A DNA stretch of 63,933 nt, filler included, from Chrysochromulina tobinii (lineage: Eukaryota): NCBI GenBank assembly GCA_001275005.1. It is 6 parts of 6 records of this genome, joined end to end, with 100 filler letters (N's around TTAATTAATTAA, not from the genome) between each part and the next. Parts side by side here need not be neighbours in the genome. Positions count along the whole stretch, not along the records: positions 1 to 25,610 come from JWZX01000999.1; positions 25,711 to 31,008 come from JWZX01001003.1; positions 31,109 to 44,032 come from JWZX01001004.1; positions 44,133 to 55,298 come from JWZX01001005.1; positions 55,399 to 59,009 come from JWZX01001006.1; positions 59,110 to 63,933 come from JWZX01001019.1. One strand, 5' to 3'. A model generated the notes under the pieces. That model did not search any database. It was given only the letters and a program-made list of their open reading frames with translations, and was not told where the DNA came from. The translations under genes and the position numbers were made by a program. This document shows, piece by piece, positions 197 to 62,737 of this stretch; the stretch's first letter is position 1; the number at the start of each line of letters is the position of its first letter.

Positions 197-1942
197 ATGG
201 CGTCGCCGCCGTCGCCGTCGACGCCGCGTCGTGAAAGCAGCCTCGATCCCTCGCTACTCACGCGTGCGTCCACAGGCGGGATGTCGTGGGTCCGGCACGA
301 TAGCATCGATCGTGCGCGTCATAGGACTGACTTTGAGATCTTGGCTGTGCTGGGCTCCGGTGCGTTTGGCACAACACACAGGGTGAGGAATCGTGTCGAC
401 TCACGCGAGTACGCATTGAAGAGTGTCAAGCTCAGCTCGACCGTCGACTCTGAGAAGCGGAACAAGGTGCTTCGCGAGGTGGAGCTCCTCTCACGGCTGA
501 ACAGCGACAACGTCGTGCGGTACTATTCTGCTTGGGTGGAGAAGGGCGACGCGTCCGCAAGGCTCACAGACGTCGAATCGTTGAGCACGTCAGAGCCGAG
601 CGCTTCGGTTTCGGTTTCGGCCGCCGCAGCATGCGAGGACCCCGTGTGCAACCTGTGCAGCTCGACTTACAAGGATTGGGAGGTGGGCTTCGAGCAGTGG
701 GGTCTGCTCGATGCTGTGCTACAGCCGCTCAGCCTTTGCAGCCAGTGCTACATGAGCAGCCTGCCGCCTGGAGAGGACCACTCGTCGATTACGGTGCGCG
801 AGAAGACGGTGCTGCACGATTATCTCTTCATCCTGATGGAGCTGTGCGATTCCACATTACGCGACGAGGTTCAGAAGCATGATGGTGAAGCAGCCCCCAT
901 CTGGTCGCTGTTCGCTCAGTGTGTGCAGGGCCTTGCGTACGCTACAACACTCGAACTTGCATCCCTCGAACCTCGAGCCTAGCGGCCCAGCGCACCTACC
1001 AGGATAGCACGTGCCTTGACCGACCGTTGTTCACATGCGCGCGTCGTGCACATACCGGTAGGCACATCCACTCGAAAGGGGTGATCCACCGCGATGTCAA
1101 GCCCACCAACATCTTCTGCCAGGCAGGCGTCGCTAAGATTGGGGACCTTGGCCTGGCCACGTACGTTCCGTCAGCCGTGCAGCCGGTGGCGCTCAGCGGT
1201 GGGGCGGCTGATGATCCACTCGCCCTGAGCGTCGGGGACACTCAGATGAAACTGACCGACGTCGGCACCTTCCTGTACACCAGCCCCGAGGTTGCGACAG
1301 AGGTGTACGATGAGAAGTGCGACGTCTTCTCGCTCGGAGTGGTGCGTTGGCTGCCCTCTGATGGCGCCTCTCATTGGCCTCTGATGGCGCCTCTCATTGG
1401 CTTCTGATAGCCTCGACCTCTCATTGCGTTGCTCATTAGGTGCTCGTCGAAATGTTCTTCAAGTTTGGGACGGCGATGGAGCGCGCCAAGGTGGGATCGC
1501 CTCACCGATTGCCTCCCTCATCAGGGGCGATGGAGCGCGCCAAGGATGCTCCCTGATGGCCTCTGATGGCCTCCCTCATCAGGTGCTCGGCCGGCTGCGC
1601 CTCGACGGCTCGTTGCCTGCAGCGTGGGTGGAGGCATATCCAGTCCAAGCACGCCTTGCTGCACGGATGGTGGCCCATGATCCCACCGCGCGCCCGTCGT
1701 GTGGGGAGATTTTGGGTGAGTTGCTTGAAGAGGGCTTATGGGTACGTCCGACACCAGCGGCGGTGGAGAGTATTGTCGGCCATCTGCAGAAAGAGGTTGC
1801 TGGGCTGAAGGTGAGGCTACAGACGAGAGATGCAGAGGTGGCGGCGCTACGCAGCCTCCTGGATGCGAGTGGCATCACGCACGACCACATTCCCACGGAC
1901 ACACACACAGTTGGCCGCGAGGACGGTAGCTCCGACGAGTGA
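197..1942 (+). CDS. eIF2-alpha kinase family (GCN2/PERK/HRI-like) Ser/Thr kinase; exons 197-936, 1062-1341, 1440-1490, 1583-1942
   Basis: LGSGAFG, YALKSV, VVRYYSAWVE, a long kinase insert, LFILMELC, IHRDVKPTNIF, KIGDLGLA, GTFLYTSPE and DVFSLGVV motifs; GT-AG introns join the three ORFs in frame. Confidence 0.9.
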
Positions 1943-2430
1943 CGAGTGAGGGGAGAGCGCGACTCAAGACCGTGAGAAGTGGTTGTGGCGCCCGGGCCCT
2001 CGTTGTCGGGGCGAGATTGTATCTCCAATCTCGGGTCGGCCGGGTTGGTGTAGCGTAGTCGCGTACAGGTCTCAGGTGCGAGGTGGCGCCAATTCAGCGA
2101 GTTTAGGGCAGATTTCATGTGATGATGATCATCCCTCAGATTCCTAGTACACGTAGGCGCCACGGCCACGCGCGGATCAATGGCGCGGGGAGGATCCGGG
2201 CGGTCCGCGCGGCGCACATGCCCCACCACGCGATCTCAATCCCGTTGCACGCGCATGGCCGAAGATCACGTCACACACGAGTGTCCGGCGCCGAACAACT
2301 AAACACATGCCTTGCTTGTAGGGAGGTGCAGACGGGGACTAGGTTTCATTGACGAACGTGGTTTGAAGATGGTTCATTGTTCGCCGGCGACATATATGAC
2401 TGGCGGTTCATTGGCGCCTAGGAAGTACGC

Positions 2431-3000
2431 CTACCGCAACGGTGCTGTGTACGACTTCGAGATGACCAGGAAGGGCTCCGACTTGGTGCCATTTGCCGCG
2501 GAGGCGGAGCTGGTGGTATTGCCCTTTTTGCAGGAGCCGCTAAAGGGCCAGCGGAAAAGGGGCAGCTTGGGGGCACGCAGGAGGCGCGCGCAGCAGCACG
2601 AGCACTTCTCAGGGATGATGGCCGCGCCCTCCGCGTCAAGGCTCAGGTCGACGACATAGGTGCCAACGACGAGGCGCGTCTCGCCGCCCTTGCGGATCTC
2701 GGTGTAGAAATTGAGGGTGGGTGTCTTCTTCCAGCCCTTTTGGGGCTTGATGAGGTAGTGGTCGAAGGTTTCGTTGACCTTGACGAACTGCTTGAAGATG
2801 GGAAAGTCGCACTCAAAGCCCTCCTTTTCCGAGGTGACGCCGAGTCCGACTGCGTCCGCCACCTCCTGCTTCGACCAGGCGACGGTCATATCGGTGCGCA
2901 GCGCGACAACCTTGCTCAAGATTACGAGGCGGGCGCCCGTGGTGACCGGCACGCCGTCCGCGCCACGCTCGGCCTCCGTGAGAGTGAATGTGGCCGACAT
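2431..3000 (-). CDS. hypothetical protein
   Basis: 189-aa ORF from the ATG at 3000 with coding-like GC3 bias; no recognised motif. Confidence 0.6.
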   Translation of the reverse strand: MSATFTLTEAERGADGVPVTTGARLVILSKVVALRTDMTVAWSKQEVADAVGLGVTSEKEGFECDFPIFKQFVKVNETFDHYLIKPQKGWKKTPTLNFYTEIRKGGETRLVVGTYVVDLSLDAEGAAIIPEKCSCCCARLLRAPKLPLFRWPFSGSCKKGNTTSSASAANGTKSEPFLVISKSYTAPLR

Positions 3001-3975: not shown

Positions 3976-4008
<33 letters not shown>

Positions 4009-4676: not shown

Positions 4677-7600
4677 CTACGCATCAACATCCACGCGTTG
4701 GTCAAGTAGAATTCGGCGCATGCCCGCAAGCGACGCCAAGCGGCCGCCAAACTGGCCCTTGACGGCCTCATCGACCCCGCGCACGAAGGCACGCAGCATT
4801 GGCTTGCACTCGGGTCGCCATGCGCACCGGCGCTCGACGAGGCGCCCGAGGCATGCCACGTCATCCAACCGACACGCCTGCACGAGCGCGCGAGCATAGG
4901 CAAGCAGCTCGGTGGGGTCGGGTGGGTTGATGGGGGCGGGGCGGGCGGCGGTTTCCATCACCTCCACTGCCACCACCGCCTCATCCTCTTCGTCCACCGC
5001 CGCCTCCGCCGCCTGCGTCGCCTGCGCCGCTTGCGCCACCGCCGCCTTCGCCGCCTTCGCCGCCTTCGCCGCCTTCGCCGCCTTCGCCGCCTTCGGTATC
5101 GGCGTCCCCCGCGCGTCCCCAACGGACGAATGCGGGCCACAGCCATGCCGCTCCAGCCACGCCCCAATATGAACGCGCATCTCGTCCCAAGGCTCAAGCA
5201 GCTGAGGCGCGGCGCCCGCGACGGCGCTTGACCGCGCGTCGACAGCCGGGGGGCGCGCCCGCGACGGCGCTCCCACCGCTGCCCCCCCCTCGTGCGGGTC
5301 ATTGCCCACGACGGCGCCGTGGGCGTGATCACGCACGGGCCAGTCTGCGGCCGGTGCGTGAGGCGATGGCCCCTTTCTCGAGCCTCCCCGCGCGCCGCCC
5401 GACACAGCGCCGCCCGATACAGCGCCGCCCGACACAGCGCCGCCCGCTGCGGCGCCGACCGCGGCGGTGGGTGGGGCAAGCGACCAGTATCGCTGCTCAA
5501 ACGGCGAGCGGCGCGGCGGCTCCGCCAGATTGCGCGAGATTGGGCGGCCGCGCGAGGCGACGCCCATATTAGGAATAGCAGCTGCCGGACGCGCCATCGG
5601 CGAGCGCTGCGGTGAGCGCGGTGGCGCCGTGATGGGCGCGATCGCAAGGTTGCGCTCGGTTTCGCAGAGGCTGCACGTGAGGAAATCGCGTTGCGCTGGG
5701 TCTACGTGCTCGTAGGTGCACACCTGTGGGGAAGAGGGAGGTGGCGCCGTGGTGAGCGCTTGCATGCCCCGGGGTCTACGTGCTCGTAGGTGCACACCTC
5801 GCATTTCCAGCCACGTGGAGAGGACGCGCCGTGGTGAGCATGCGATGCGCCGCTGTGAGCACATGTGCCGTACGCGGCACCGGCCCCTGTCCCATCAATG
5901 AACGAGGTCGCCGCCGCCGCCGCGGCCACTGCCGCCGCGGTGGCTTGGCGCTTCTGCCGCTGCCTTGCCAACTCGAGACGAAGCGCCTCACCTGATGAAG
6001 GAGACCATCAGAGGTCATCAGAGGCAATCAGAGGCAATCAGAGGCAAATCAGAGGCAAATCATCGCTCGAGACGAAGCGCCCCACCAGGGGCGCCCTCAA
6101 TCTCATCGATGGTCGCCTCGTCCACTTGCGAGCACGAGGGGAGGTGCCAATCTCCGGGGAGGTTCCAATCTCCGGTGGTGCGGAGCTCGCGATCTCCGGG
6201 ACGGAGCTCGTGATCTCCGGTGCGGAGCTCGAAGTCGCCCTCGAAGTCGGAGCCGCGCCCAACGGATGGCCGCACCTCTGATGACCCACTAATTACCCCT
6301 GATGACCCACTAATTACCCCTGATGGGCGCACCTCCGTACTCGTACTGCCGCCGCCGCCGCCGGTAGTGCACTGCCGTGACGCCGCCTGCTCCGGTGGAG
6401 CGGTCATCAGCGGTAATTAGTGGGTCATCAGCGGTAATTAGTGGGTCATCAGGGGTAATTAGTGGGTCATCAGGGGGTAATTCGTGGGTCATCAGGGGGT
6501 AATTACCTGCGCCGGTGGAGCGGCCGGCGGCGGCGCGACGGCCTTTCGTTTGCCATGAGCGAAACTATTGTGGGCCCCTGGCTGCGCAGAAGCGGGTGGC
6601 CATGCTGTTTCCTCACATGCATGTGAGGCCACCCGCGGCAGAGCTTCGGGCCAGGGGCTACTCGCCGCCTTGATCAACGCCTCAGCTGTGGCCCGTCCGA
6701 ATCGAACGCTCAGTGCCGAAACTCCGAGGCTCATTAAGTCCCCACAAGTCCGGAGACCCTCGGAAGTCAGCTGCAGGCATTCCTCGATCCGCAGAGCCGG
6801 CAGCAGGGCCATCACTGGCCGGCCCATGAGAAGCGCCTCCATGTCCGCAGATGAGCGGATCCATCGCACGCTACCCGAGGCTCCCGTCCGCACCGCCACA
6901 CTCGCAGCCAGGATGGCCGTCGTCACATCGGCGGCCACGCCCACGCCGACGGCCGTCAGTAACGGCTCTGCCGCCTCCGCCGCCGCCACCGCCGGCGATG
7001 CCGCGGCATCCGCCGCCGGCGTATCCGCCGCAAACTCAAGGTGCGACGACGAAACCCTAGTTGTGGAACCACGGAGACTCCCTAATATGGAACCGTGGAA
7101 GTTGCCTAATATGGAGCCATGGAGGCTGCCCAGAGCCTCTTCGGACACGTCTGTCGGCCGCAGCGGCTGCAGCAGCACCACTTGGTCCGCGAGGAGGGGA
7201 TAGGCCGATCTCGATGCATGCGGCCACTGCGCGCCGAGCGCTCCGACGAGCTTCTTCTTCATGGCATCCTCCACCGCCACCGTCGCAGACGTAGAGAGGT
7301 CGCCGAGGTCGGGCAGGGCTCGCACGCTGACGAACCATGCTGCCCCATTCGGCACGCTGAACAACGGTACTTCCATATTAGGCACGCTGCCGAACAATGC
7401 CGCCGGCGCAGCGGCCGCGTTGACAGCAGCGAGAGCATGGGCAGCGGCCAGGTGATCAACGTCATCAGCCATCACTTCGTCCACGTCCGCAACATCCATC
7501 TCCCATGCCGCCTCTGCTGCCACCTGTGCTGCCACCTGCGCTGGCGCTGGCGCTGGCGCGGCTGCCGCCTCCTCTCCTACTGCCTCCGCTGGCGGCTCGG

Positions 7601-8156: not shown

Positions 8157-8269
8157 TCCTGTGGCCGAAAGTCCGCAACACCAGACGTGGGAAAAAGAAG
8201 TTTGTCAGAAACAGTTACAGGTACTTCGCGGCCACACCCGCGCCCACCACACTCCGTCTCAAAGAACAC

Positions 8270-12844: not shown

Positions 12845-14701
12845 ATGGCAGCCGCGCAGAGGGCCCGGACGACGACGCCTATTGAGCAGTTTGCGCTGCT
12901 CTTGCACGAGCCTGGGGAGCAGGCCAATGACGCGCTGAGCGCCTTCCTCACGCGCCAACTTGACGGCATCGATGAGTCGTGCCAAGCCCAGTTGATGCTG
13001 CTCTGCACATGGCTCATGCAACTCTATCTGGAGCGGGGCAGCCTCGGCGAGCGCGCCCATGAGCAGACCCGAGCCGCCGAGTTCGCCAAATTCCTTGCCG
13101 ACCATGGGGAACGTCTGCACCACGCCACAACGTGCCGGCAGCTCGCGGCGCACGGGACCCTGAGCGAGCTGCTGCGTTACGCGGCGCTCCGAAAGGACTG
13201 GCAACGGCTCATTGCTCTTCATTTGCAGCAGCTGGACGTCAAGGCCGCCCTCCAGGTCGTCACCGAGCTCGTTGCTGCCACGGCCAAACAGCCCACACCC
13301 GACTGGTCCCTAGTACGTCTTCTCGAGACACACAGCGCCGAGTTCGCGCGCTGCGACCAGGCGGCGACGATTGGCCTTTGGCATCGCGTGGTGGGCCTCG
13401 ACCCGATGCAGCTGGTGCCCGCCATCCTGAGCTGTGGAAACGACGAGGCCGGCCGCGAGGCGAAGCGCAACGGCATCCGCTACTTCTCCTCGCTCAGTGG
13501 CAAGGATGGCGATTCCCCCGCACTGCATAACGCCCTGGCGTTGCTCCATGCGCAGAGCTCGAGCGACGCGGAGCTGCGCGAGTTCCTGGCGAACGATCGG
13601 CTCTACGAGCGCGACTACGCGCTCGCCGTCTGCCGCGAGAGCGCCCGTCACGACGCGTGCATCCTGCTGCTGCAGCGCGCGGGCAGCCTCGCCGAGGCCT
13701 CCCACTACGCGGCGCAGCACGGGCTGCCCGACACGGCGCGGCGGATCATCGAGCAGGGGCCGTTGGACGATGTGCTGCGCCGGCGTCTCACACTGCAACT
13801 CCTCGGCCCTCCCGTAAGACTGCGGCTCGGCGCGATCTCCGCCGACGAGATCGCGGTGCACACCGCCCTCGACGTCGACGCGGAGCCGGCGCCCACGACG
13901 GCGCCGCCCCCCACCCTGTCGGTGCACGATTGCATGCGGATGCTAGCCGAGGACTCGGGCATCGCGCAGAGTGACGGGAGTGCTCTGCTGCGACTCGAAG
14001 ATGTCTTGCCGCTGCTCGACGAGTATATAGTGGTGAGGAGCGCCCCCACTGATTGCCACTGATTGCCACTGATTGCCTCTGATTGCCTCTGATTGCCGCT
14101 GCTCGACGAGTATATAGTGGCCAGGAGCGCCCCCACCGATTGCGTCTCATATTGACGGAGCTCTTGTGCGAGTCCCCACTGATTGCGTCTCTCATTGCGT
14201 CTCTCATTGCGTCCCTCATCAGGTGAGCGACTTGAAGGAGCTAGTGTGCGAGTCTCTCGCGGTGCATGCGGCCTCGTGTGCCGAGCTGCGCAAGGTGGGA
14301 TGGCCTCCGATGACCCCTTCTGATGGCCTCTGATGACCTCTGATGACCTCTGATCGCCCCTTCTGATGGCCTCTGATGATATCTGGTCGCTACTGAGTAC
14401 CTCTGATGGCCTCTGATGACCTCTGAATTGCTTCCTTCATCAGGTGCTCGACGCGTGTATTGGGCGCGCGAGCCTACTGAGCTCCGAGCTAGCGACGCTG
14501 CAGGAAGCTCCCCCGCCTGAGGCGAGCTCCACGGGCACCTTCTGCGCCCGGTCCGGCGCGCCTGCCGACTACATCTTTCCTTGTGGGCATGCGTTCCACG
14601 AGCGCTTCCTCTCAAGCTGGGCTGCATGCCCTCTTTGTGGGCTAGAGGTGGTGGAGAGCGTCACGAAGCCCTTCATTGAGGACGACTTTGACAGCTTCTG
14701 A
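12845..14701 (+). CDS. VPS18: VPS18/PEP3-like protein, apparently lacking the N-terminal propeller; exons 12845-14032, 14223-14294, 14444-14701
   Basis: LCTWLMQLYL, clathrin-repeat-like helices (YERDYALAVC), LRLEDVLPLL and RING-like FPCGHAFH..CPLCG..SVTKPFI. Confidence 0.8.
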
Positions 14702-19616: not shown

Positions 19617-21563
19617 TCACGCTTCGGAGAGCGGACCCATGGTGGGCGGGGGTAGCTCCGCGAGGAGTGGAGCGGTATCGGGTGCCTCGGGCGCCGCCTC
19701 TCTCTCCTCCTCGTCCCCGTCCCCCTTGTCACTCCAGTCGCCATCGTAGGGGTTGTGTACCGACAGCCGGCGAGCTGCGAAGTCCGCAGTTGTCGGCGTG
19801 CCGGCTGGATCGCCCTCCTGCCCCTCATCACCTGTGCCGCCTTCGATCAGACCCTGCTTGCCCGCGTTGACGAGCACGTGACCTGACGAACCTGCCATTG
19901 ACGAGCCCACGTTGATGAGCACGTGGGCTGACTGGGCATCCCCCTCCTCTGTCTCAGCGGTCTTCTCGGGCTCAATTGGCTCCTCATCATCCGTCAATCC
20001 CTGCTCGAGGAACGGCAAGAACGTGATAATGGCGGTAATGTCGTCGCGGTAGGTGCCCTCGAAGCGCTTCCATCGCGCCGCTGCCTCATGAACGAGCTGT
20101 GAGCAGCCGACCGGAGGTCATCATGAGATCATCATGAGGTCATCATGAGGTCATTATGCGATCATTATGAGGTCATCATGAGGTCATTATGAAGTCATAT
20201 CATCACCTGCGAACACGCCTCCGTCGCACTCGTGTACTTCTCGACGATGCGGCATGCCTCATCCGACTCCGTGAATTCCCACACGCCGTCGGAGGCGACG
20301 ATGATGAACAGATCGCCATCTCCCCCCTTCACCTCCGGCGGCCTACGTACCGCATGCATCACGTCATCAGCGCTCATGAGGCCATCACGGAGAGAATCGG
20401 CGGTCATCAGCGCGAATCTCAGCACCGCATGCGTCATCAGCGGTCATCAGCGGTCATCAGCGGTCATCAGCGGTCATCAGCGGTCATCAGCGGTCATCAG
20501 CGGTCATCAGGGGTCCTCGGCGCGCACCTGAGCACCACATGCGTCACGTCCGGGTCAGCGATCACGCCCACGTTCTTGACCTCCCCGTCGCCGATCGATC
20601 GTGACATCGCGAGCCCGATGCGGCCGTGCGCCCAAACTCGGGCCGGCCGCCCGCCGCTGCGCTCAGAGACGGTACCGCCACGCGCCTCAATGCGAGCCCG
20701 CTCCTCCGGTAAGTCGGGCTTGTGGTCGTGGCAGAGGTCCTGCGCCACGAGCAGCATCGTCGGCCATCAGAGGGGCCCTCGGAGAGGTCATCAGTGGTCA
20801 TCAGTGGTCATCAGATGACGGAGGCCATCAGCGAGCGGCGCACCATCGCGATGATCTGTCCGCCCACGCGCCGCCCGAGGACGGCACGCGAGTCGCCCGC
20901 ACACGCCGTCCAGCAGTCGGCGCCGTTCAGGTACAGCACCGTAGAGGTCGTGCCGCACGTCATCGCCGTCTTTCCTAATTCGGACGCGAAGAGCGACTCG
21001 TCAGCCTTGACGCAAGCGCGGCGCAGCGCCTCGATCGGATCCGAGCGGAGCGACAGGCGCCCCTCGTCGTTCTCGAGGAACGCAGGGATGTGATGCATAC
21101 AGAACTCGGACGCCTTCTCACCCTTGGAGCCGTGCCCGTCGAAGACGCACAGCAAAGCCTGGTTGAAGCTTCCGTTGAAGGGCCAGCACACGACGCCTCG
21201 GTCCTGATTGATCTTGGCGGTGGTGAAGCCGCGCTGCCCGGGCATCAGGCCGTGGCGCGTATGCGTGCCGATGCGATGGCCGTGGTGAGATGGCCGTGAT
21301 GAGGATCGCCCCGACGAAGTGCGAAGCAGGCTCGAACCCGACATCTCTTTGGACTGGTATTTGACCGAGAGCCGCGAGTTGCGTGGCGGGGTTGTTGGGC
21401 CGGCTCGAAGGTCGGCAGCAATGTTGCTGCCCGGAAGCAGCCGCCCTAGGCTATCCGTCGAGCCCTCCGTATCAGAAGCCCTGCCGGCTGCCGACCTGGT
21501 GGACGAGCTGGCCGTCATCCCGCTCGGGCTAGCAACCAGCTCGTCCGCTTTCTTCGACTGCAT
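19617..21563 (-). CDS. PP2C/PPM protein phosphatase; introns 20740-20843, 20343-20527, 20097-20206
   Basis: KINQDR, VFDGHG, CGTTST, AGDSRAV, DHKPD, GLAMSRSIGD, ASDGVWE and DDITAII motifs are in frame after splicing. Confidence 0.92.
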
Positions 21564-36616: not shown

Positions 36617-37600
36617 TCACAGCCCAAAGGCGCGCTGGATCTTGAGCCGGAACACTGTGGGGATCTCGGCGGGCAGAGCATTCGACTGGGCCAGCAGGAA
36701 GACGTCGTCGACGCACCTGATGAGCGAGGCAATCAAACGTCTTCCGATAGATGAGGGAGGCAATCAGACGCCATCAGACGCCAGCAGGAAGACGTCGTCG
36801 ACGCACCGGCATCCATACGCGAGGACCTGCAGCGACGCAATCAGACGCAAGCAGACGCAAGCAGACGCAATCAGACGTACCGGCATCCATCCGACGAGAG
36901 GAACTGCAGCGCGGCGTACGCGTCGGTGGCGGAGAGCCCGGCGGCTTGCTGCAGCCACCCAGCGACCGCGTCGAGCTCCGGTCCAGCCTGGGCGGGTGCG
37001 GGGGGCGCCGAGTCGCGCGTACGCCCCAAGGCGCGCTGTGCCGGGCCCCTCTGCACCGCCTTTGGAGGGAAGGTGAAGCACGAGATCTGAGGCTGGTACG
37101 AGGACTTGGAGTCGCGAAAGGTCTGCGAGAGGGCGGGATTGGGGCTGCTGAGGGAGGGGCAGGGGCTCGGAGGACGGACGCCGCGCCAGTCACGGGGGAA
37201 TGCGCACCTCCACATCGTGGTCATAGTAGACGGGCTTCGTCGCCGCAGCTTGGTAGGCGATCGGCGGCACCCACTCGACGGGTGGAGGCGGCACCGGCTG
37301 CTGCTGCTGCTTATACAGCGGCGGCTGCCGTTTGATTGCCTGTGGGCCCGACCACACATTGAGCTCCGTCTGATGCGTCGACTTGCGGTCCCGGAAGCTC
37401 TATGGCGCGAAAGCGAGTCGACCGCGAGCCGTGAGCCTTTCGGTGGGTGGCGCGAGGCGTTCGTGTGCTGTGCGCCTTGTGCGCGCACACCTCGTGGTCG
37501 TGGTCGTAGTACACCGGCACGGGTGCTGCCGCGCGCATGCCGGGCACCTGCGGCATCGGCCTGGCAAGCGCCGGAGCGACAGCCACAATGAAGGCAAGCA
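36617..37600 (-). CDS. hypothetical protein with SAM-like C-terminus; intron 36717-36880; 5' structure uncertain
   Basis: VAGWLQQAAGL..GCR|CVDDVFLL..IPTVFRLKIQRAF after splicing. Confidence 0.4.
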
Positions 37601-37922: not shown

Positions 37923-39800
37923 TCATGAACGGTTCGCCTGCTTGAGCCGCACACGGCTCAGAAGGCTGCCCAGGCACGCTTGCATCGCCTCACACAAGGC
38001 CGCCAGCGGAGCCTCGCCATGAGTCACGCCGCTGCTCTGCGGCTGCTTGGCTGCGCTCAAGAGGGAAGGAGCATACTCGCCCGTACCTGTGGGGAGCGAG
38101 GCGCCGTGGTGAGCGCTTGCTTGCACTCAAGAGGGAAGGAGCATACTCGCCCGTACCGGTCGCATACTGCCACGCGTTGAAGGCCGAGTTGGCCGCCCGG
38201 TACTTGAGCTTCTGGAGCGCCTCGGAGAGCAGCCGTACCATCTTTTGACGCTGCCACGTGTACTCCTCCCATGAGTGGAAGCCTCCGGCGAGCTTGCGAT
38301 GCAGCATGTGGCCCATGCTAGCCTGCAGCAGTTGCATGTGCCTGGCGCGGCTCTCGGCGAACAAGAGCCACGAGTTCCACCCCTTGGCCAGTTGCTGCTG
38401 GGGCAGTCGCTTCAGCGCCTGGCGGCCGATTTCGTCGATTCGCTCCGCACGCTCCTTGCGTGCGCGGCTGCTGTCGCTCATCTCGCCCTCGGGGCTGCTC
38501 GGGGGAGATTCAATCTCGGTTTGGGCGAGATCGCACGGCGTGCCGGGCTCGGCGGTGCCTTCGAGCGCGGCGTACTGCTGGCGCACGACCCTCGCCTTCG
38601 TGGCAGCCTTTGCGCGGCATCGCTTCATGCTCGTAATCAGGGCATCGCGCTCGTGCCGTAGCTCATCGCCCTTCTTCTGCATCGCTTTGAGAGCTACACT
38701 GCATTCCTTGGCGTCGAGCCTGCCGCTGCCGTCCGCGTCGATCACGTGAAAGAGCTCAGCGGCCTGCATGTGCGCGGAGGAGTCGAGTAACAGCCCACTG
38801 ACCATATTTAGAAAGTCGCCCTCGGTGAGCCCTTCCGAGCTGCTCGCAAACTGGCCCACAAAGTCCGCCGCCTTGATGCGCCGGCGCGTGCAAGCGATGC
38901 CGAGCTGCACCTCCAGATCCGCCTCCATCTCGCGCTTCTGTTTCGTGAGCTCCGCCTCCCGCCGATCGGCCTCCTCTTCAAACCTGATGAGCGAGGCAAT
39001 CAGACGCCTTTCGATAGATGAGCGAGGCAATCAGACGCAATCAGACGCGATCGGCCTCCTCTTCAAACCTCTCTCCTTCGGCCGCGTGGATGGCGAGCTC
39101 GCGTAGCTTGGTGGCTTTGACGGCGAGCCTCGCGCGCACCTGTGGGGAGAGGGGAGGGCGCCGTGGTGAGCACTTGCATGCATAGCTTGGTGGCTTTGAC
39201 GGCGAGCCTCGCGCGCACCTCAGCCTTGGACAGGTTGATCGCGCAGCCGACTGCCTTCAAGTCGACTAGGATCGTCTTGAGCTCGATCGAGCTCAGCATG
39301 CCCGACTTGCCCTTGTCGTACGTGTCGAAGAACGCGTCAATCTCCTTGGTCTCGAGATCGAACGGCTCCTGCGGCCGATACTTGGCGAAGAGCGCTTTGA
39401 TCCGCATCCGAAACTCGGTCTTCAGCACGCTGCCGCTGTTTGTTGGGTCCCACGCCCGGAGCTGTGCCGGCACATCGACATTCGCTTCAGCCAGAAGCTC
39501 CCGCAGCCTCTCCGCCGCCCCCTGCTTGTGAGGCTTCTTGTCGCCCTCCAGCGCTTCGGCCTCGGCTATGAGCTGGCTCGAAGTCAGCCTCGTGAACTCC
39601 GTGAGTGCAGGCGCAGCCTTGCACACGTTCTGGAGCCCGGCGAACGTGCCTCGGATGGCAACCGCAGCTGGTGGAGAGTAGAGGCCCAAGGGGGCTTCAC
39701 CTTGCGGCCAGAAAGAGCGCAGCCTGGAAGATTTGATAAAGAAGCGCGAGGTCTGGCGCGGCGTCCAGATGTGGGGGGCGGCTGCAGTCGGCGACGGCAT
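37923..39800 (-). CDS. EF-hand/coiled-coil protein; introns 39140-39218, 38984-39068, 38087-38156
   Basis: EF-hand loops DPTNSGSVLKTE, DKGKSGMLSSIE and DADGSGRLDAKE; intron removal restores one frame. Confidence 0.82.
38984..39068 (-). mobile_element. candidate intron-generating insertion, family A (type example)
   Basis: perfect 23-nt direct repeats (38963-38985, 39048-39070) flank CTGAT-repeat filler ending CTGATTGCCTCGCTCATCAG; related ends occur in more than 10 introns. Confidence 0.65.
39140..39218 (-). mobile_element. candidate intron-generating insertion, family B (type example)
   Basis: perfect 38-nt direct repeats (39104-39141, 39183-39220) flank a 41-nt GCATGCAAGTGCTCACCACGGCGCC..CCCCAC module that recurs at 5724, 34666 and 38087. 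Confidence 0.65.
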
Positions 39801-40701: not shown

Positions 40702-43276
40702 CAAGCGCCGCCGCCGCCCCGCGCCGCCCACGACCAGAGGCTCCATGACCAGCTCCACGACCAGCTCCACGACCACCTCCTTCATGTGCGTCCACAGCTT
40801 CATGTGCTCCTTCCGCCTCCGCAGCAGCCTCCGCAGCAGGCCCTTCGCAAGCCGCAACAGCTGGCTGCTCGTAGTACACGTCCACGTAATAGGCAGGGCA
40901 ATCCGCGCCTGCCTCCACGTGGCACCGTACCTGATGAGGGAGGCCATCGGGGGCCATCGGAGGCAATCCATGCCTGCCTCCACGTGGCACCGCACCACCT
41001 CGAGCGTCGAGGGGTAATCAGAGGTGATCATAGGTAATCATAGGTCATCAGAGGCACCGTACCTCGAGCGTCGAGCCGCCCGCCAGCCAGAGCGCTGTCT
41101 CGAGCAGGCGCACGTACCTAATATGGCAAGAGCAGTGGCACTCAAGAGAGAGGCGCGAGAGCGCCGTCTTGAGCGGCCCCACGTACGAGCACTCCCAGGC
41201 TGTGCAATCAGTTGCAATCAGTTGCAATCAGGTTTATTTACGAGCACTCCCAGGTTGTGTCCTGCGCACGCGCATGCATCGAACGGGGCCCAACCGTTGA
41301 GGGAGATCGGTGGGAGATCGGAGGCAATCAGAGGAGATCGGAGGGAGATCGGTGGGAGATCGGAGGCCGAACCAGTGGCAATCAGAGGCAACCTCACCTG
41401 CGCGTAGGCATCGAGCGTGCACGAGGCGTCGAGGTCGATACATAAGTGCAGGTGCAGACCATCAAAATAGCTCCCCTCGGCACCAACTGCCATCAGACGC
41501 AACAACCAGCAGACGCAATCAGAGGCAATCAGACGCACTCGAACGCACTCGAGCGCGACCATCTGACGCAATCAGAGGCCACTCAGGGCCAATCAGACGC
41601 AATCGGAGGTCATTAAGAGGCCATCCTGAGGCCAATCCGAGACAATTACCCACGAAGCGGCACGTGCGCTGCTGCTGGCTCGGCAATCCGATCGCAATCT
41701 CCGGCGCGTCGAACGTATACGTCTCGAACGGTTGGGGCGGCGCGATCATGTACGACGCGGGCAGCCGCTTGAGATGGTACATGCATCCGGCGGCCGCGGG
41801 GCACTCCATCGCCCTGATGAGGGAGGCAATCAGACGCCATGAGAGCATGCACTCAAAACCAGCCAGCCATTCGACCGCGTGCGTCCGTTTCCACACCGGA
41901 CTGTGCCGACGGCGTCCGGGGGTAATCAGAGGTAATCAGAGGTAATCAGAGGTAATCACACCGGACTGTGCCGACGGCGTCCGGGGGTAATCAGAGGTAA
42001 TCAGAGGTAATCAGAGGTAATCACACCGGACTGTGCCGACGGCGTCCGGGGGTAATCAGAGGTAATCAGAGGTAATCAGAGGTAATCAGAGGTAATCACA
42101 CCGGACTGTGCCGACGGCGTCCGGGGGTAAAGGACGGGTAGGTGCTGTGAGCGATGAGGGACGATGAGGGGCGGTGAGGGGTGATGAGGGACGATGAGGG
42201 ATGATGAGGGACGATGAGGGATGATGAGGGACGATGAGGGACGATGAGGGACGGTGAGGGACCCTCATACGAAGCAACTCAATCGCTCTCACCGACCATC
42301 GTCCGCGCCGCGCGAGGCACAAATTGGCAATTGGGGACCAGCAGACCGGCGCGTGTACGCAGCTCGCGGAGAGCTTTGACGACGCCTTCGGCTGAGGCGA
42401 GGTGCCCGAGGATTTCGTGCACTACAAGCTGCCAAATTAGGAAGGTGTCACGATTAGGACGAGGCGATGTGCTCGAGGATCTCGGGCTGTGGGGACTCAA
42501 GCTGTGGGATCCCCAAGTAATCCGTCCCAATCAGCGCTCGTCACGCACCTCAATCTGACCGGGCAGCGCCGTTGTCGAAGAGAGGCCCTGGTATAGGGCG
42601 ATCGTGCGGCCATCGCGGGCGCCAGTCGCAAGGGCGACGCAGCCTGCGGACACGCCCGGCTGCCCAACCGGCGCCGGGCACGCGAGCTCAAAGTCGTCGA
42701 GCTGCGCGCCCAGAAAGGCGAGCTGCCCGAGGAACTGAGAGCACTCCTCATCGAGGGCACCGTCGACGACAGTCCAACCATATTTGGAACGTCTTGAGGG
42801 CGCTTCGGAGCGCGCCTCGCGCTTGAGGATCTCAAGGGCGAGCGTGACCGAACGGCTCGAGTGCTCGACGCAAGCAACGAAGCTCGCGCCGCAGCGTTGC
42901 GCGATGCGCGCGAGCACCATGAACGGACCGGTGCCCACGTCCAGAACACGCCGGCCAGGCGCGGCGCGCTCCAGGGCCTCGGTGAAGGCTGCCAGCCGAG
43001 GCACGTCGGAAATGAGGCTGTGGTGTGCGCCGGCCGTGTACTGCTGATTCTTGGCCGAGACGGAGCAGCCCCAGCGAGGCACCTCGCGCAGGTCCAATCG
43101 CATGTTTTTTTGTCTTTGGGTTGCCCCGACAGGCGGTCCGGCGGCCCCCCCTCGTGTCCTTTTCCTGGATTATCTCCGGTGATGGGATGGCTTCTCCGTA
43201 CCTGCAGTGCCCGAGTGTAATTTGGGTCCATTTTTGCAACGACACACACACGGAACACCGCCCTCTTGGAAGCCAT
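40558..43276 (-). CDS. protein arginine methyltransferase-like SAM-dependent methyltransferase, multi-intron; boundaries uncertain
   Basis: HHSLISDVPRLAAF, VLDVGTG, ACVE, VVHEILGHLASAEG, FDGLHLH. Confidence 0.65.
41892..42130. repeat. compound tandem repeat in an intron: 31-nt exon-junction copy alternating with (TAATCAGAGG)n, 4 copies
   Basis: cacaccggactgtgccgacggcgtccggggg occurs four times. Confidence 0.9.
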
Positions 43277-43341: not shown

Positions 43342-43427
43342 CCCCCGATAGCTCAGTTGGCAGAGCGGAGGACTGTAGATGGTTTCAGCATATCCTTAGG
43401 TCTCGTGTTCGACTCACGGTTGGGGGA
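43342..43427 (+). tRNA. tRNA-Tyr(GTA) with a 13-nt intron (43379-43391)
   Basis: cloverleaf: CCCCCGA/TTGGGGG acceptor stem, GCTC/GAGC D-arm, GAGGA-CT-GTA, TTCGACT T-loop; T6 Pol III terminator at 43432-43437. Confidence 0.95.
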
Positions 43428-50600: not shown

Positions 50601-52548
50601 GCGCCCGATACGGCGCCCGATCCGCCTCCCCCTGCTTGGCCAGCAATCCCCCTCCGCGCGGGAGCATCCTCGTACCTGATTACGGAGGCAATCAGTTGTC
50701 CGTCAGTTGTCCATCAGTTGTCCATCAGTTGTCCATCAGTTGTCCATCAGTTGTCCATCAGTTGTCCATCAGTTGTCCATCAGTTGTCCATCAGTTGTCC
50801 ATCAGTTGTCCATCAGTTGTCCATCAGTTGTCCATCAGTTGTCCATCAGTTGTCCATCAGTTGTCCATCAGTTGTCCATCAGTTGTCCATCAGTTGTCCA
50901 TCAGTTGTCAATCTCACTCCCGCGAGAGCATCTTCGTACCGGGGGCCTTCTCGTCGCCGTCACCCGTAGGCCTGAGGCCGAGGCCGAGCTTGAGGGCGCC
51001 GTTCTGGGCGCTGCCGCCCGGGCTGAGGGCGCCGTTCTGGGCGCCGTCTGAGCCGAAGCTGACGCGCGGCGCCGTCCCGGCGCGGCGGCTGCCAACGCTG
51101 CTGTGGGCGCCGCCGCTGCCGCCGCTCATGTTGGTGAACGGTCGTGAACGGCCGCCGGTCGCAAGCACCTCCTCATCAGCGCTCGGCGGCACCGACGAGG
51201 AGACAGTGCCATCGGACGCGAAGCGCACGCTGCCAGCGCTTCCGGAGCTGTGAGTGTGAACGGAGCTGCTCATCGCGGCGGGCGCGGCAGGGATTGCATG
51301 CGTGGTGGTCGACACACCACGTGCCGACACTGGCGGTGTGAAGGGCAGGCTCAATGGCGGTGGCGGTGCGAAACCCAACGGCAGCGTCGTGGCGAGCGCC
51401 GCGCGCACTCGCCCCTGCCTCGCCGCCTCCGCCGACGCCTCCGTCGACGAAACCGTCGACGAAACCGTTGACGAAACCGTCGACGACGCGGCGTGTTGGG
51501 CGCCGTTGGCTGTTTCACGTCGCACGCCCTCGGCGCTGAAGCGCACGAGACCAGCCGTCAATTCCAAGGTACGCGAGGGCGGCGGTGGCGGCGGATGGCC
51601 GGCTGCGCCAAGCCGAGGCGGCGTGCCGAGGACCTCGTACTCCGACGCGGGAGGGTGTGCACGTGAGTGTGAACGCGAGCGCGTGGCGGCTGGCGAGGAG
51701 GGGGCTGGGATCAGCAGCGACGAGGCGCCGTCGCCCAGATCGCTAGCCAGATCGAGATCGCTAGCCAGATCGCTCATTGGGCGCAGCCCTCCCGCGTTAC
51801 TGGCGGCCGCGGGCCAGTGGCGCACGGGCCCCGCCAGAGGTTCACGTGTCGGAGAGAGGCTATGTCCCTGGTCCGTGTCCACTGGCTGCCAGCGGCGCAC
51901 GGGTGAGGGTGCTCGCTTGGTCGCCGCGCCGGCGAGCACCGCCTGCTTGTTCGCATGCTCACCGAAGAGGCGCTCGAGCTTAGCGGCGGAGCTGCGCGTG
52001 TCTGTGAACTGCTGCGCGAGCACGACGACCGCCTCAGGCACATTCGACGCACCGTCGGGCGGCACGACGGCGTCGGGCGGAGCTGGCCAATCCCACCGCC
52101 TCTCGTTCAGCTCCGTGTTGTAATAGTAGGTGCGGCCCGCCTCCGTCTGGGCCTCCTTCCACCCGTTGGGCAGCGGCCTCCACTCCGGAGCTGGATTGGT
52201 AGCGGCAGCATCGGCGGTGGAGGCTGAAGGACGCGGCCGCTCTGGGCTCGCGTTTGCGTGCTTCCGTACTCTCTGGGCAGCAGCAACTTCGTAGACCCAC
52301 TTTCCATTTCGTAATATGGGCGCCTTTTTCGGCTTGCCTTCCTCGTCGACAAGGTTACCCTCCTTGTCGCGCAACTCCCCCTTTGCAATCAGGTCGGCCA
52401 CAGACTCCTCAGTCTTGGTCATGCCGCCGAGGTCGCGGCCACGGATGACCAGGCCCGAAGTGGCCAGTGGCGCGATCGCAGCGCACGCGTCGGCCACCGC
52501 GGCTATCGCCTTTTTGGTGGAAGGTTGTTGGTAGACCTGTCGCACCAT
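47686..52548 (-). CDS. multidomain protein: WW, low complexity, HET/TIR-like, RNI-like LRR, Rab-like GTPase; intron 50676-50939
   Basis: LPNGWKEAQTEAGRTYYYN..WDWP; IIVLSCPWL..HP..FWDY; LQLAGNPITDEG; YDHLFMVVLLGDAGCGKS, PTIGVE, LQLWD; splice CCC G|GT ACG joins both ORFs in frame. Confidence 0.78.
50691..50909. repeat. 11-nt tandem repeat (CATCAGTTGTC)n, about 20 copies, intronic
   Basis: direct reading. Confidence 0.95.
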
Positions 52549-59707: not shown

Positions 59708-61898
59708 ATGGCATCGCTCATGGCATGGCACCGTCGTTTCGCCAAGTCTCCTTGCTCTCGGCCACATCGGCCTCGAGAGGAGCAGGGCGTGCGCGGAGCC
59801 CTCACTCTCCTTGCATGGTGCACCATGCTGCCCTGCACCGAGACCAGCGAGACAACGGTGTTCACCAGCTCTGGCCTGACCAGCGCACTCGACAACTATG
59901 CTGTCAGCCGCATCGTCCTTTCCTCCGGCACCTACAACCTCATCGCCGAGCTCAGCATCTACAGGAGCGTCATCCTTGAGGCGGCGGTGGCAGGTTCGGT
60001 CACCCTGAAGGCACAAGCGAGCTCCTCAAGTCCGCGCCGTGTGCTGATGATCGACCTGGGCTCACCATCGGGCTTCGTGCAGCTGATCGGGCTCAACATC
60101 ACAGGAGGCTACGTCAACCCTGTGCGTGCTCATGTTCAAAAGATACCATCGCCCCGATGGAAAAATTGCTGACGTGCTTGCCTCTTGCCTCGACTCTCGC
60201 CTTGCAGACCAGCGCTTGGAGACCCTCAGACCAGCGCGATGAGGCTCGTCGTGGATATGTGTGTGCCGAGACCTGTAATTTCCCATCGCTTGGAGACTCA
60301 CGTTGATCTGCTTGTTGTTTGCAGGGTGGCGGTGTCTTTGTCGGGCAAGGCACAGTGACCATCTCATCGTGCAACATCAGCGGGAACTCAGGTGGTTATG
60401 TACGTGCTCATGCTCAAAAGTGCCCATCGCCCCGATAGGAGACTGACGTTTTGCTCGTTGTTTGCAGGGTGGTGGTATCGCAGTCTTCGGACCGGGCACA
60501 CTTTCAATCGAAAAATCCAAAGTGTATTCCAACCAAGCTACCAATGTGAGCACTCGTCTTCAAAAGCTCCCATGGCCCCAATGGGATGATTGCTGATGTG
60601 CTCGCCTCGACTCACACTTGCACAATTGCGAACGCTTCGGTCAACAGACGTACGTGCCACGGAGACCTTGAAAAGTTCCCATCGCCCTCGTGGGATGCCT
60701 TGCTTTTGTGACCTCCACTGTGAGCTTCGCTCCCCTCTCCTCGCCCAGGGGGCCCAATGTCTACGTTAGCAGCGGAGGAACGGTCTGCTCCTGGGCAACG
60801 ACCCTAACAGAAGTCTTCACAGAAGTCGATGGCTCAGTCGATGACTTCTCGACTTGCGGGCCCGTCGCAGGCGTCGTCGTCGGCGTCGTCGTCGGCGTGA
60901 TCATCGCCCTCGCCATGGTCATCCAGCACCTTCGTCGCCGCGATATGTGCTCCAACCCTAACCCGAACCCTAACCAGGCGGCGGAGATTCGCTTGACGGA
61001 GATTCGCTTCGCCGAGGCGGCGGCGGCGGCCGAGGCGGCGGCGGCGGCGGCCGAGGCGGCGCGGCTGGCGGACGAGGAAGCGAAGGCCGCGGCCGACAAG
61101 GCCGCGAAGGCCAAGGCCGCGAAGGCCGCGAAGGCCGCGAAGGCCGCGGCCGACAAGGCCGAGGCCAAGAAGGAGGCAGCCGCGGAGCTAGAGAGCGCGG
61201 CCAAGCAGGCACGCATCACCGACATCGCCGACGAGCCGTTAGAGCTCATGGGGCCGATCATGGGGGTGATGAAGAGCGTGCGCTTGTCGCTGATGGACGC
61301 GGCGGCAGCGAGCGGCGTCGAAGACATCGACGGGCACGCCTTTATGGCGAGTGAGGCGGGGGCGCAGCTTGCCGCGGCCGATCCGCACGGCCTGGACGCG
61401 GACGAGGTGGGCGCGCTGTGGCTGTACACAGCAGAGAGCGACTTCTACCCGACGCTCAACCGGCTGCTGCGCACACGTGACCGCTCCGCCCTCAAGCCCT
61501 TCTTCCCGTACCTGCAGCTGATGCTGACGGCGCGCAGCAAGCTGCCCAAGTACAACGGCTCCGTCTGGCGCGGTGTCAAGGGCATCGACCTGCGCGCCAA
61601 GTACCCCAAGGACAAGGATGTCTGGTGGTGGGCCTTCTCCTCGACCACCAAGCAGCTGGAGACGCTGACGAACCCGCAGTTCCTGGGCACCAGCGGCGTG
61701 CGCACGGTCTTCATGATCGAGATCTTGCACGGCGTCGACCTTCAGCGCTACTCAGCGTTCCAGGGCGTAGCGAGCGAGGCGGAGGTCCTGCTCTACCCAG
61801 GCACGAAGCTCAAGGTGGTCGGCTCAATGGAGATGGGTGGCGGCCTCTTCCAGGTGCATCTGAGGGAGGTGCCACTCACCGTCGCCGTCTTCAAGTGA
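59708..61898 (+). CDS. transmembrane receptor-like mono-ADP-ribosyltransferase (beta-helix-like ectodomain, TM, coiled coil, R-S-E ART); exons 59708-60121, 60208-60258, 60325-60399, 60468-60545, 60648-60649, 60749-61898
   Basis: GLNITGG, GGGVFV..ISGN and GGGIAV..YSNQA repeats; TM VAGVVVGVVVGVIIALAMVI; LYT, VWRG, WWAFSSTT, SEAEVLL. Confidence 0.85.
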
Positions 61899-62024
61899 GC
61901 GACGCTCAAGCACCTGCCCGTCGCCGTCCCAAGTGAGCGACGCTCAAGCACCTGCCGGCGCCTGTGCTGACGGCGGGGGCCCCATCCATGGCGCATGCCG
62001 AGGGGCGGCCGCGTGTGGGGTTGT

Positions 62025-62737
62025 TATGGCCACACTAGTAATCAGCCGCCATCAACCGCCATCAGTCGCCATCAGTCGTAATCAACGCCCATCGAACTTA
62101 CCCGTCGCGACCACGTGCGGCGTGGGCAGTCGGCACCCACACGACTTCTTATGCGCGCAGGGCTCCTTCCAGGATTCCACCTGGCACGCGCGGCTGCAGT
62201 AGCGCGTCTCGCCACACTTGGCACAGCATTTGAATGCGTCCCCTTCCTTCGGCTCGGCGCCACAGAGCGAGCAGCATCGGTGCAGCCGGGGAAAGCTCGT
62301 CTGGTCCGCCGCTTGCGCCTCGAGCGCTGCCTCATGCTCTTCATCACGCGCCTCGGCGCGGATCTTGACCTTGTTCACCTGATGAGGCATGCAATCAGTG
62401 GCTGATGAGGCATGCGATCAGGCGCGGATCTTGACCTTGTTCACCTGATGAGAGAGGCGATCAGAGGTCATCAGAGGTCGTCAGAGGCACTCAGAGGTAC
62501 TCGGATGTAATCGGAAGTCATCATGGGTCATCAGGGACCATCAAGAGTCCATCAGAGGCCATCAGTACTCATCAGAGGCCATGAGTGGTAATTAGTGTAC
62601 CTTAATGCCCCGTTTGATTCCGGTCGGGCGCTTCGTGTCCGGCGCCGTCGCCTGGCTCGCCTCTGCTCGCTTCTGATTCTCAGCGATGGCCGCCTCCAGC
62701 AGCGCATCCTCATTGAGCTGTGCCGCCGCGCGCCGCT

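Follow-up and report, generated by a model that had tools for sequence, protein, structure and literature searches.

Satellite-filled introns with copied exon ends in a Chrysochromulina tobinii-like haptophyte are likely copied from existing introns

Introduction

Where the DNA of a new spliceosomal intron comes from when no transposon supplies it, and how such introns originate at all, is a long-standing question. It is raised anew by the 63,933-nt stretch analysed here (the window), which consists of six joined contigs of a Chrysochromulina tobinii-like freshwater haptophyte. A first-pass annotation had listed 13 introns in this window that end in close variants of one 20-mer, are filled with 10-11 nt tandem units containing CTGAT and mostly carry a copy of adjacent exon; it proposed that they are written de novo, by slippage-prone templated synthesis, at exonic AG|GT sites. 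In Daphnia pulex, intron gain has been explained by the repair of staggered double-strand breaks (PMC4202315; review PMC3443670), and that work found the footprint of the break but almost never the source of the insert. Introners have been described in Micromonas, Aureococcus, Symbiodinium, Polarella and marine Chrysochromulina MAGs (PMC9860276; bioRxiv 10.1101/2020.10.14.339549), and the screens for them omit one-ended, low-complexity families by design: according to the available part of PMC9860276, that survey demanded matching at both ends and dropped low-complexity families, and in the available part of its supplement C. tobinii appears in the genome list only. Our analysis covers the window together with 140 metagenome loci.

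Intron inventory and splicing

All 13 listed stretches are real GT-AG introns on the strand of their own gene, and they are spread over nine genes and four of the six joined contigs, in agreement with the earlier count of at least nine genes on several contigs; gene names were read from predicted proteins and protein comparisons. The coordinates are right for all but one intron, which was given as 41814-42100 and ends at 42101. The list was incomplete: the window holds about 11 further satellite introns and four of a second family (B), and a by-eye, non-exhaustive count gives about 28 introns with the footprint described below against roughly 18 plain introns.

The 13, called family A, are spliceosomal (U2-type) introns by their GT-AG ends, by skips in RNA contigs and by frame restoration. 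In 12 of the 13 cases the open frame becomes longer once the intron is taken out, the intron at 36717..36880 (minus strand) being uninformative in this test; among the matches listed, that same intron is skipped in contigs of at least three RNA runs, with no such skip in the DNA run. This comparison of RNA and DNA contigs covered eight of the 13 introns, with figures taken from the matches listed, and the intron at 40931..41062 (minus strand) is skipped in at least one RNA contig. A C. tobinii protein record agrees with the spliced kinase over the site of the intron at 1491..1582 (plus strand), a transcript-derived relative confirms both junctions of a Vps18-like gene (introns at 14033..14222 and 14295..14443, plus strand), and three introns of metagenome locus L032 are skipped in RNA contigs.

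The satellite introns outside family A include one at 1342..1439 (plus strand) in a GCN2-like kinase gene, which has a degenerate A-type end, and three on the minus strand of a PP2C gene, at 20097..20206, 20343..20527 (with upstream-exon copies) and 20740..20843. Also on the minus strand are two predicted ones, at 41118..41241 in a methyltransferase-like gene, where the low end (41118-41232) is kept in at least one RNA contig, and at 41262..41397, where the open-frame test is uninformative; one at 41487..41649; and a probable one near a gene end at 62035..62101. In a further minus-strand intron, at 42145..42292, the final 10-mer of the A end is repeated to fill the body.

The shared 3' end and its CTGAT units

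The 20-mer is matched with at most three mismatches at 12 of the 13 family A ends; the end of the intron at 14295..14443 has five because of a 1-nt shift. At this threshold the window contains 19 occurrences, against a mean of 0 in 20 second-order Markov simulations. The ten plain introns examined differ from the 20-mer at 11-14 of 20 positions and contain no CTGAT, which rules out that it is the general 3' splice consensus, a reading that the first-pass annotation had named as fatal to its proposal. GT directly follows 12 of the 13 family A introns in the window, and the one at 41814..42101 (minus strand) is followed by GG. A total of 191 distinct terminal A ends were found in 106 regions, with GT or GC next in 168; CAG follows 262 of 331 core matches, at loci that had been picked by that motif. 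An estimated 2700 stretches with the motif are present in the metagenome collection. DNA runs X17-X20 contained next to no occurrences of the searched words, viral contigs and prokaryote genomes gave no motif match, a weak negative, and when the window and three loci were scanned against Rfam, the only hit was one tRNA gene and no family matched the elements.

The spacing of the units is mostly 10 nt, as had been noted, with 843 gaps of 10, 187 of 11 and 88 of 12; the intron at 50676..50939 (minus strand) is an array of an 11-nt unit. The introns of Emiliania huxleyi, described by Read et al. in 2013, are reportedly enriched in 10-11 bp tandem repeats like the haptophyte introns studied here, and those repeats are said not to have been tied to intron birth, exon duplication or donor introns, unlike here. 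The CTGAT decamers are branch-like, and their adenosine, at position -17, is a putative branch point; seven of ten plain introns have CTRAC at -22/-23. With regard to pairing between CTGAT and the terminal ATCAG, no compensatory change was seen among 190 ends, in which variants are few, and the G variant of the 20-mer folds into a weak, imperfect 20-nt hairpin at -6.1 kcal/mol. A telomerase-type origin of the filler was rejected on the grounds that the units differ from the telomere-like CCCTAA repeat, of which the window has two short arrays and the scanned loci none.

Copies of flanking exon

An exact string of at least 10 nt is shared with adjacent exon by nine of the 13 introns, against two of 156 swapped pairs, so that most of them do carry such a copy, as previously claimed; none of ten plain introns does, their longest shared string being 5-8 nt. 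The copies come from either side. Upstream-exon copies are found inside the intron at 1491..1582 (19 nt) and, as a 29-nt stretch present three times, in that at 41814..42101. Downstream-exon copies are found, all on the minus strand, at 5992..6085 (20 nt), 33488..33561 (9 nt), 36717..36880 (27 nt), 38984..39068 (21 nt, perfect) and 62379..62600 (24 nt, with a second A end inside). The intron at 33813..34096 (minus strand) has both kinds in a patchwork, that at 50676..50939 has a 19-nt imperfect copy, and that at 14295..14443 is without a long one.

Over the window and the 140 metagenome loci, a copy of the downstream exon lies upstream at 88 of 192 A ends and is anchored at the base directly behind the AG, compared with 0.4% in the swapped and 1% in the shifted control. 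This is a direct repeat of adjacent exon of the Daphnia type, above background, and the absence of enrichment that would have counted against the earlier proposal is not what is seen. Copy lengths run continuously from 11 to 60 nt (median 24 nt), and 38 of 87 copies are perfect; of 88 copies, 54 are preceded by AG and 76 by G, and a long exon copy is absent at 104 of the 192 A ends. A MITE or other cut-and-paste transposon was rejected in view of these continuous 11-60 nt duplications and the lack of a conserved 5' end, where a fixed short duplication and terminal inverted repeats would be expected.

Family B and a mirror type (type II) have the same footprint as family A. The same anchored copy is present at 14 of 20 B ends and in none of the controls; in the window, on the minus strand, B introns lie at 5724..5797 (perfect 26-nt copy of the downstream exon start), 34666..34729 (donor position uncertain), 38087..38156 (long downstream copy; open-frame test uninformative) and 39140..39218 (perfect 36-nt downstream copy). 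In the mirror type it is a copy of the upstream exon that lies at the acceptor, as in 28 of 140 arrays without an A end and 0 of 292 controls; examples are the minus-strand introns at 6387..6506, where GT and satellite are followed by an AG from the upstream-exon copy, and 34367..34481, a GC-AG intron. Several unrelated ends have one footprint: A, B, a CATGCAG end and the type II starts.

A 57-nt insert at 6276..6332 (minus strand) combines an 11-nt exon duplication with an inverted copy of the unit of a neighbouring intron. It is in frame and free of stops and may stay unspliced, and protein P0212 points to a 36-nt version in another strain. Among five neighbouring opposite-strand arrays, it is the only clear inverted local copy; that of locus L001 was set aside, since its contig begins there and a misjoin may be involved.

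Donor introns and strain differences

A 79-nt insert in locus L032 is precisely absent from the 98%-identical locus L060. It carries a perfect 28-nt duplication; RNA runs X11, X12 and X16 have contigs that skip it, and a DNA contig of X7 contains it. Its body matches an intron 360 nt upstream, with two extra bases at the join, and both the insert and its match carry a T that is present in L032, where L006 and L060 have C. Introns with this footprint are likely still being made, because one of them is spliced in RNA yet absent from a close strain.

Comparison across sources covered about ten intron positions, of which about nine are common and only one gave a presence/absence case. Deletion between direct repeats could also yield a precise absence. 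In a search of protein clusters for more such cases, four of ten ORFs were found, with no read-through allele among the members inspected. Conservation of positions across haptophytes, which had been named as evidence against recent gain, was checked in part: both Vps18-like introns appear to be absent from a 43%-identical relative, judging from read-through proteins (contigs up to 8302 nt), and the L032 insert is polymorphic. The position of the intron at 14033..14222 is common to 95%-identical strains whose fillers are unlike, and 98.7%-identical loci have arrays whose lengths are 80 nt apart; because of these two differences, some exon copies and arrays are secondary. Some introns also contain repeated blocks of exon copy plus end.

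The best match lies in the intron's own region for 16 of 117 introns, compared with 1.9 expected (permutation p 0.001), and elsewhere for the other 101. Locus L036 has an intron that reproduces in full another one 2.9 kb off, with the donor's own exon copy included. Five of six hand-picked private strings are confined to one region and the sixth occurs in two, and look-alikes span gene boundaries, as in the minus-strand introns at 35401..35557, 36717..36880 and 38984..39068, which share a private 11-mer. Given that best matches are preferentially local and that the polymorphic intron matches one 360 nt away down to a single-nucleotide variant, the introns were likely copied from existing introns, often nearby ones, rather than written de novo. 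The first-pass annotation is supported in its recent gain at (A)G|GT with exon copying, templated patchwork and slippage, and finds no support for its "de novo", since the 3' module and filler are traceably common to other introns, with nearby ones preferred. In seven look-alike pairs chosen by eye, 4.1 nt of the downstream exon start are in common against a background of 2.0 (p 0.0008, or 0.006 given the same GT/GC); these extra shared bases suggest that the template includes the donor's exon. Each of the window's 20 arrays lies within a gene (p 0.012 if placement were uniform, with analyst-set gene bounds), and orientation is sense for 97 arrays and antisense for five, with 38 unclear and 141 left unscored.

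Discussion

For the observed anatomy, the one precise presence/absence case, its splicing and the traceable local look-alikes, the best explanation is in our view microhomology-primed repair synthesis at staggered breaks near (A)G|GT, followed by a selection filter and slippage expansion, a reading to which we give about an even chance. A staggered DNA break would create the variable 11-60 nt duplication, and a free end would pair by a few bases with the AG|GT junction of a donor intron. Copying, from DNA or unspliced RNA, would then take in the branch-like CTGAT decamers, together with the acceptor in type I and with the donor site in type II; rejoining would be imprecise, in the manner of polymerase-theta-type end joining. 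In mouse cells, templated insertions that depend on POLQ have their source 2-5 kb away (PMC4183433, in the part available). Within exons, an insert would persist only if splicing removes it or the frame stays intact, and the inverted local copy, which persists as a stop-free 3n insert, is consistent with this. As every new intron would become a further donor, a few ends (A, B and variants) would spread as families and accumulate in the same genes, and slippage and unequal exchange between the duplicated flanks would lengthen the arrays afterwards. Several observations count against this model. Blind repair should also litter neutral intergenic DNA, yet the arrays are genic and mostly sense, so insertion may be coupled to transcription or splicing. 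The constant 3' junction is what an enzyme-cut end would give. On the same side stand the single presence/absence case, the hand-picked set of seven pairs behind the exon-sharing result, the 101 introns with their best match elsewhere and the 104 A ends that lack a long exon copy.

As in Daphnia pulex (PMC4202315 and PMC3443670, in the parts available), a repeat of the exon end flanks the new introns, with internal direct repeats, presence/absence variation and repeated events in young introns. There, however, the repeats are 4-12 bp long, the inserted DNA is rich in AT and only a handful of inserts could be given a suggested source, whereas here duplications measure 11-60 nt and the inserts can be traced to other introns, in genome-wide families. 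In the tandem genomic duplication model (Rogers; PMC3443670, available part), duplicated AGGT likewise gives the splice sites and leaves the protein unchanged, but here the duplicates enclose a foreign filler that has branch-like motifs and, in many cases, the acceptor. Introners also place related introns in unrelated genes (here 191 ends in 106 regions), with one splice site carried and the other recruited; their duplications, according to the available part of PMC9860276, are short (3-9 bp, with classes of 4 or 8 nt) and both their ends are similar, unlike the single common end, widely varying duplication, satellite bodies and local copying seen here. Presence/absence between close relatives is shared with introners in the one case of about ten positions, but similarity does not reach both ends, the 5' parts being site-specific exon copies or variable satellite, with the whole-length L036 pair as the sole exception. 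We found no description of this intron family in the literature, including the available parts of PMC4580454, PMC12130899, PMC12480563 and PMC8379373; the E. huxleyi genome paper and the full introner supplement may bear on this.

An unlikely alternative is partial reverse splicing, in which an intron-holding spliceosome joins the intron's 3' end to AG|GT in the DNA strand displaced by an R-loop; extension of the nicked exon end gives the duplication, the RNA tail is copied into DNA with stutter near the branch point, and end joining seals the far end. It would account for the exact AG end, sense orientation, gene confinement, local donors and the whole-intron copy in L036; the R-loop model is published (PMC4540971), and half reverse splicing with polymerase-theta joining has been shown for linear group II introns (PMC3280974), both seen in their available parts. 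Copied introns, sense orientation and clustered insertions also recall intron transposition in Oikopleura and Mycosphaerella, whose models, as far as the available part of PMC4540971 sets them out, give clean whole introns with no long duplication, whereas here there are mostly partial copies, duplications, mirror types and an inverted copy. Partial reverse splicing yields neither the mirror type (28 of 140) nor the inverted copy, look-alikes lie in separate genes, and extra exon-2 bases are common to look-alike pairs although exon 2 is missing from an excised lariat. All copied elements, the shortest 28 nt, pass the putative branch point. A reverse-transcriptase stall exactly at that point was rejected for the same reason.

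We regard as equally improbable that the introns are non-autonomous transposons moved by an enzyme, either a Replitron/Helitron-type HUH nuclease acting at the 20-nt hairpin or LINE-type target-primed reverse transcription. LINE insertions leave a variable duplication and one truncated end, a signature that speaks for the second form. For the first speak the -6.1 kcal/mol fold, one Replitron-like fragment listed for C. tobinii and the layout of Replitron-1 insertions in Chlamydomonas reinhardtii, which, read on the opposite strand, have a fixed end at a dinucleotide target, a variable duplication in which that target is included and a fuzzy far end with flanking sequence of the parent (PMC10288648); correspondingly, GT/GC follows 168 of 191 ends here and the L036 copy bears its donor's flank. 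Replitrons, however, measure 0.9-3.6 kb, encode a transposase, have terminal direct repeats and are without report as introns, whereas the elements here are known without such a partner, and no match of the family motifs in the Replitron supplements (PMC10288648) led to the C. tobinii entry. Unrelated ends leave the same footprint, the hairpin lacks compensatory change among its few variants, and an enzyme should produce intergenic landings too, against 20 genic arrays out of 20.

Remodelling of old introns at ancient positions, with slippage arrays, locally duplicated exon copies, ends homogenised by conversion and loss in L060, would fit the secondary changes at 14033 and in array length, the repeated copy-plus-end blocks and the nine or so common positions, but is very improbable in view of the perfect 28-nt duplication and donor base found only in L032, the 43%-identical relative whose read-through proteins lack both Vps18-like introns, and the absence of the footprint from plain introns.

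In the most far-reaching reading, these introns would form a self-propagating factory without an enzyme of its own, in which host repair or the spliceosome templates on existing introns; this factory, which we think has an equal chance of being real or not, would have built a large share, perhaps more than half, of the alga's introns and would still be running, with parent-daughter pairs readable. The source can be read here: daughter and parent introns can be paired to the exact base, the two splice-site geometries are both represented, and splicing already acts on a polymorphic intron. Since the alga can be cultured and its lake populations have been sampled, the choice between repair copying, reverse splicing and a transposase becomes directly testable.

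Anatomy of the introns

The 13 stretches reported in the first-pass annotation as family A introns have GT-AG ends on the gene strand in every case (13/13). The 20-mer said to close them all was recovered with at most 3 mismatches in 12 of them, the remaining one lying beyond this limit, and GT follows directly after 12 of the 13. At the same threshold, the window, in which spacers link six contigs with 63% GC, contains 19 matches to the 20-mer, against 0 in simulations. An ORF comparison found a shorter reading frame in 12 of the 13 when the intron was left in. In RNA contigs, three runs show skipping of 36717-36880 and a single run shows it for 40931-41062; the 36717 skip joint was not seen in the DNA run. 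Runs containing this DNA bear the labels mixed culture and freshwater metagenome. In protein clustering at 90%, the kinase ORF falls together with a Chrysochromulina tobinii protein; compared by eye, this protein matches the spliced kinase product across introns. The haptophyte Chrysotila is the sole named match for any carrier gene. On these grounds the DNA comes from C. tobinii itself or from an alga very closely related to it.

The proposed copying of adjacent exon is borne out by exact copies of at least 10 nt in 9 of the 13 introns versus 2 of 156 swapped pairs. The 20-mer is not merely the general acceptor, a reading left open by the first-pass annotation, because the ten plain introns in our comparison set (two of them RNA-confirmed) all lack CTGAT, the motif kept in the satellite units, carry no exon copy longer than 8 nt, and stand 11-14 mismatches from the 20-mer. 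The list of introns was sound for the 13 named and left out about 11 more introns of the satellite kind as well as four belonging to a second family, B (5724-5797, 34666-34729, 38087-38156 and 39140-39218, all on the minus strand). Family B introns have a conserved core about 28 nt upstream of their CCCCACAG end and a long exon duplication, as in family A; the core has 81 matches in the window and the metagenome loci, 9 of them with an A-type unit just upstream. A third recurring 3' end, closing CATTGCATGCAG and then GT or GC, occurs in loci L005, L016, L039 and others. The Emiliania huxleyi genome paper is said to describe 10-11 bp repeats in introns.

Other repeats were observed in the window. 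Short telomere-like CCCTAA repeats lie at 60945-60977 (plus strand) and 23168-23184; the former finishes in CCAG and resembles an intron 3' end, with CTAAC coming from the repeat. A WD40-repeat gene at 15880-17340 (plus strand) consists of tandem blocks of exon plus 65-nt intron, its plain introns multiplied through internal duplication. About 14 tandem blocks of some 300 nt each occupy 25711-29900; their conserved part of about 125 nt, followed by a variable spacer, reads as a minus-strand coding repeat, so that they are probably exon-intron repeats. An 18-nt satellite containing CCCACAG lies at the two ends of the last contig (59110-59280 and 63735-63933), and a duplicate pair of about 120 nt (39920-40040 and 40582-40702) lies 660 nt apart between two genes. 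A tRNA gene at 43342-43427 (plus strand; 86 nt against a 71-position model) probably has a short intron inside. At 62700-62770 (minus strand), the frame of the last gene shifts within a low-complexity stretch, owing either to an intron that escaped recognition or to an error of assembly.

A plan common to all forms

Scanning 3 of the 64 parts of the metagenome collection with the 20-mer yielded 140 loci, in which end conservation is biased because the 20-mer was used to pick them; about 2700 stretches with the 20-mer are estimated for the whole collection. Among 360 ends with enough flank, 212 are terminal (192 A and 20 B). Upstream of 88 of the 192 A ends (controls: 0.4% swapped, 1% shifted) and of 14 of the 20 B ends (controls 0) lies a stretch copied from the downstream exon and anchored at the first base of that exon. 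These copies span 11-60 nt (median 24) and are perfect in 38 of 87; they are preceded by AG in 54 of 88 and by G in 76 of 88, some of the AGs being part of an earlier A end. Copy-plus-element lengths are evenly spread modulo 3 (34, 28 and 26). There is also a mirror form, seen in 28 of the 140 arrays that lack an A end and in 0 of 292 controls, whose AG comes from a copied piece of the upstream exon. All forms share one plan: the sequence around AG|GT is duplicated, and filler separates the two copies.

There is one clear strand exception: at 6276-6332 (minus strand), the unit of the adjoining intron has been copied in inverted orientation. This 57-nt insert is stop-free, and the frame is open both with and without it; since it is in frame here and apparently 36 nt long in the protein of another strain, it may have turned into coding sequence.

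A probable gain and later change

The proposed check for presence/absence polymorphism returned one case among about 10 positions compared between sources. Across some 4 kb, loci L032 and L060 share 98% identity, and a 79-nt insert in L032, made of a perfect 28-nt exon copy and an A-type element, is precisely absent from L060. Exactly 79 nt are skipped at this site in RNA contigs of runs X11, X12 and X16, and a DNA contig of run X7 reads through the insert; splicing rests on X11 and X12, because the X16 sequence is slightly different and may simply be intron-less. Two factors favour a gain in the L032 lineage, as judged from sequence. First, the element's match is to an intron of the same gene, 360 nt upstream, through a string unique within our data. 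Second, it carries the T of this donor in L032, where L006 and L060 have C. Deletion between repeats could also have produced the difference, as the two alleles are compatible with it. Both introns of the Vps18-like gene appear to be absent from a 43%-identical relative, judging by read-through proteins in contigs of up to 8302 nt.

Slippage and unequal exchange act after an intron's birth, as follows from three observations: the position of intron 14033 is kept in strains about 95% identical while its filler differs, between two loci of 98.7% identity one array changes in length by 80 nt, and blocks of exon copy plus end are often tandemly repeated. An exon copy, then, does not always date its intron's birth.

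Local donors and orientation

From 190 distinct ends, 117 were scoreable; 16 of these have their best match within the same region (1.9 expected, p 0.001), in pairs whose flanking exons are unrelated, and the majority match best elsewhere. Donors lie both upstream and downstream. One intron of L036 reproduces in full an intron lying 2.9 kb downstream of it, the donor's own exon copy included; the AAA-ATPase-like gene at L036:1300-4900, which contains this whole-intron copy, packs about 18 introns into 3.6 kb, almost all of them of type A or B. A private 11-mer is common to introns 35401, 36717 and 38984 of the window, although they belong to three different genes. In seven look-alike pairs picked by eye, the shared downstream exon start averages 4.1 nt versus a background of 2.0 (p 0.0008, or 0.006 when conditioned on an identical GT or GC).

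With gene bounds drawn by us, the 20 arrays in the window fall in 8 of 30 genes (13.5 expected, p 0.0009) and none is intergenic (p 0.012). A classifier correct in 141 of 149 training windows called 97 arrays sense, 5 antisense and 38 unclear, with 141 not scored; arrays next to each other are on the same strand 301 times out of 306.

Possible origins

Anatomy, splicing, one polymorphism and local look-alikes are established here. As to their source, we give an even chance to repair of staggered breaks templated by the splice junction of a donor intron. Repair synthesis would prime on the few bases common to the break and that junction, copy part of the donor and rejoin imprecisely, and selection would retain inserts that splice out or preserve frame. 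Both geometries would follow from such repair, as would the microhomology in exon 2, the inverted copy and the copying from one gene to another. The scheme resembles the POLQ-dependent insertions templated from 2-5 kb away that are described in PMC4183433. It does less well with the lack of copies between genes or in antisense orientation. That genic and sense bias is explained by partial reverse splicing into R-loop DNA (PMC4540971 and PMC3280974), which leaves the mirror and inverted forms unexplained and seems unlikely. Equally doubtful is movement by a dedicated enzyme: Replitron-1 insertions have a matching layout and a Replitron-like fragment is listed in C. tobinii (both in PMC10288648), yet the same behaviour is seen at several unrelated ends, and the partner element is still hypothetical. 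Pure remodelling of old introns is the least probable reading, and we consider it very unlikely.

Our literature searches found no description of this intron family. Break repair with short repeats has been described for intron gain in Daphnia, the source being mostly missing (PMC4202315), and intron transposition and tandem duplication are treated in a review (PMC3443670) and, as regards Oikopleura, in PMC4122922. Introners with short fixed duplications have been described, in marine Chrysochromulina as well (PMC9860276 and bioRxiv 2020.10.14.339549); the introns studied here fall outside that class under the both-ends criterion of PMC9860276, a survey that discarded low-complexity families. 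The observation is real and a variant on known routes of intron gain, one that is unusually testable here.
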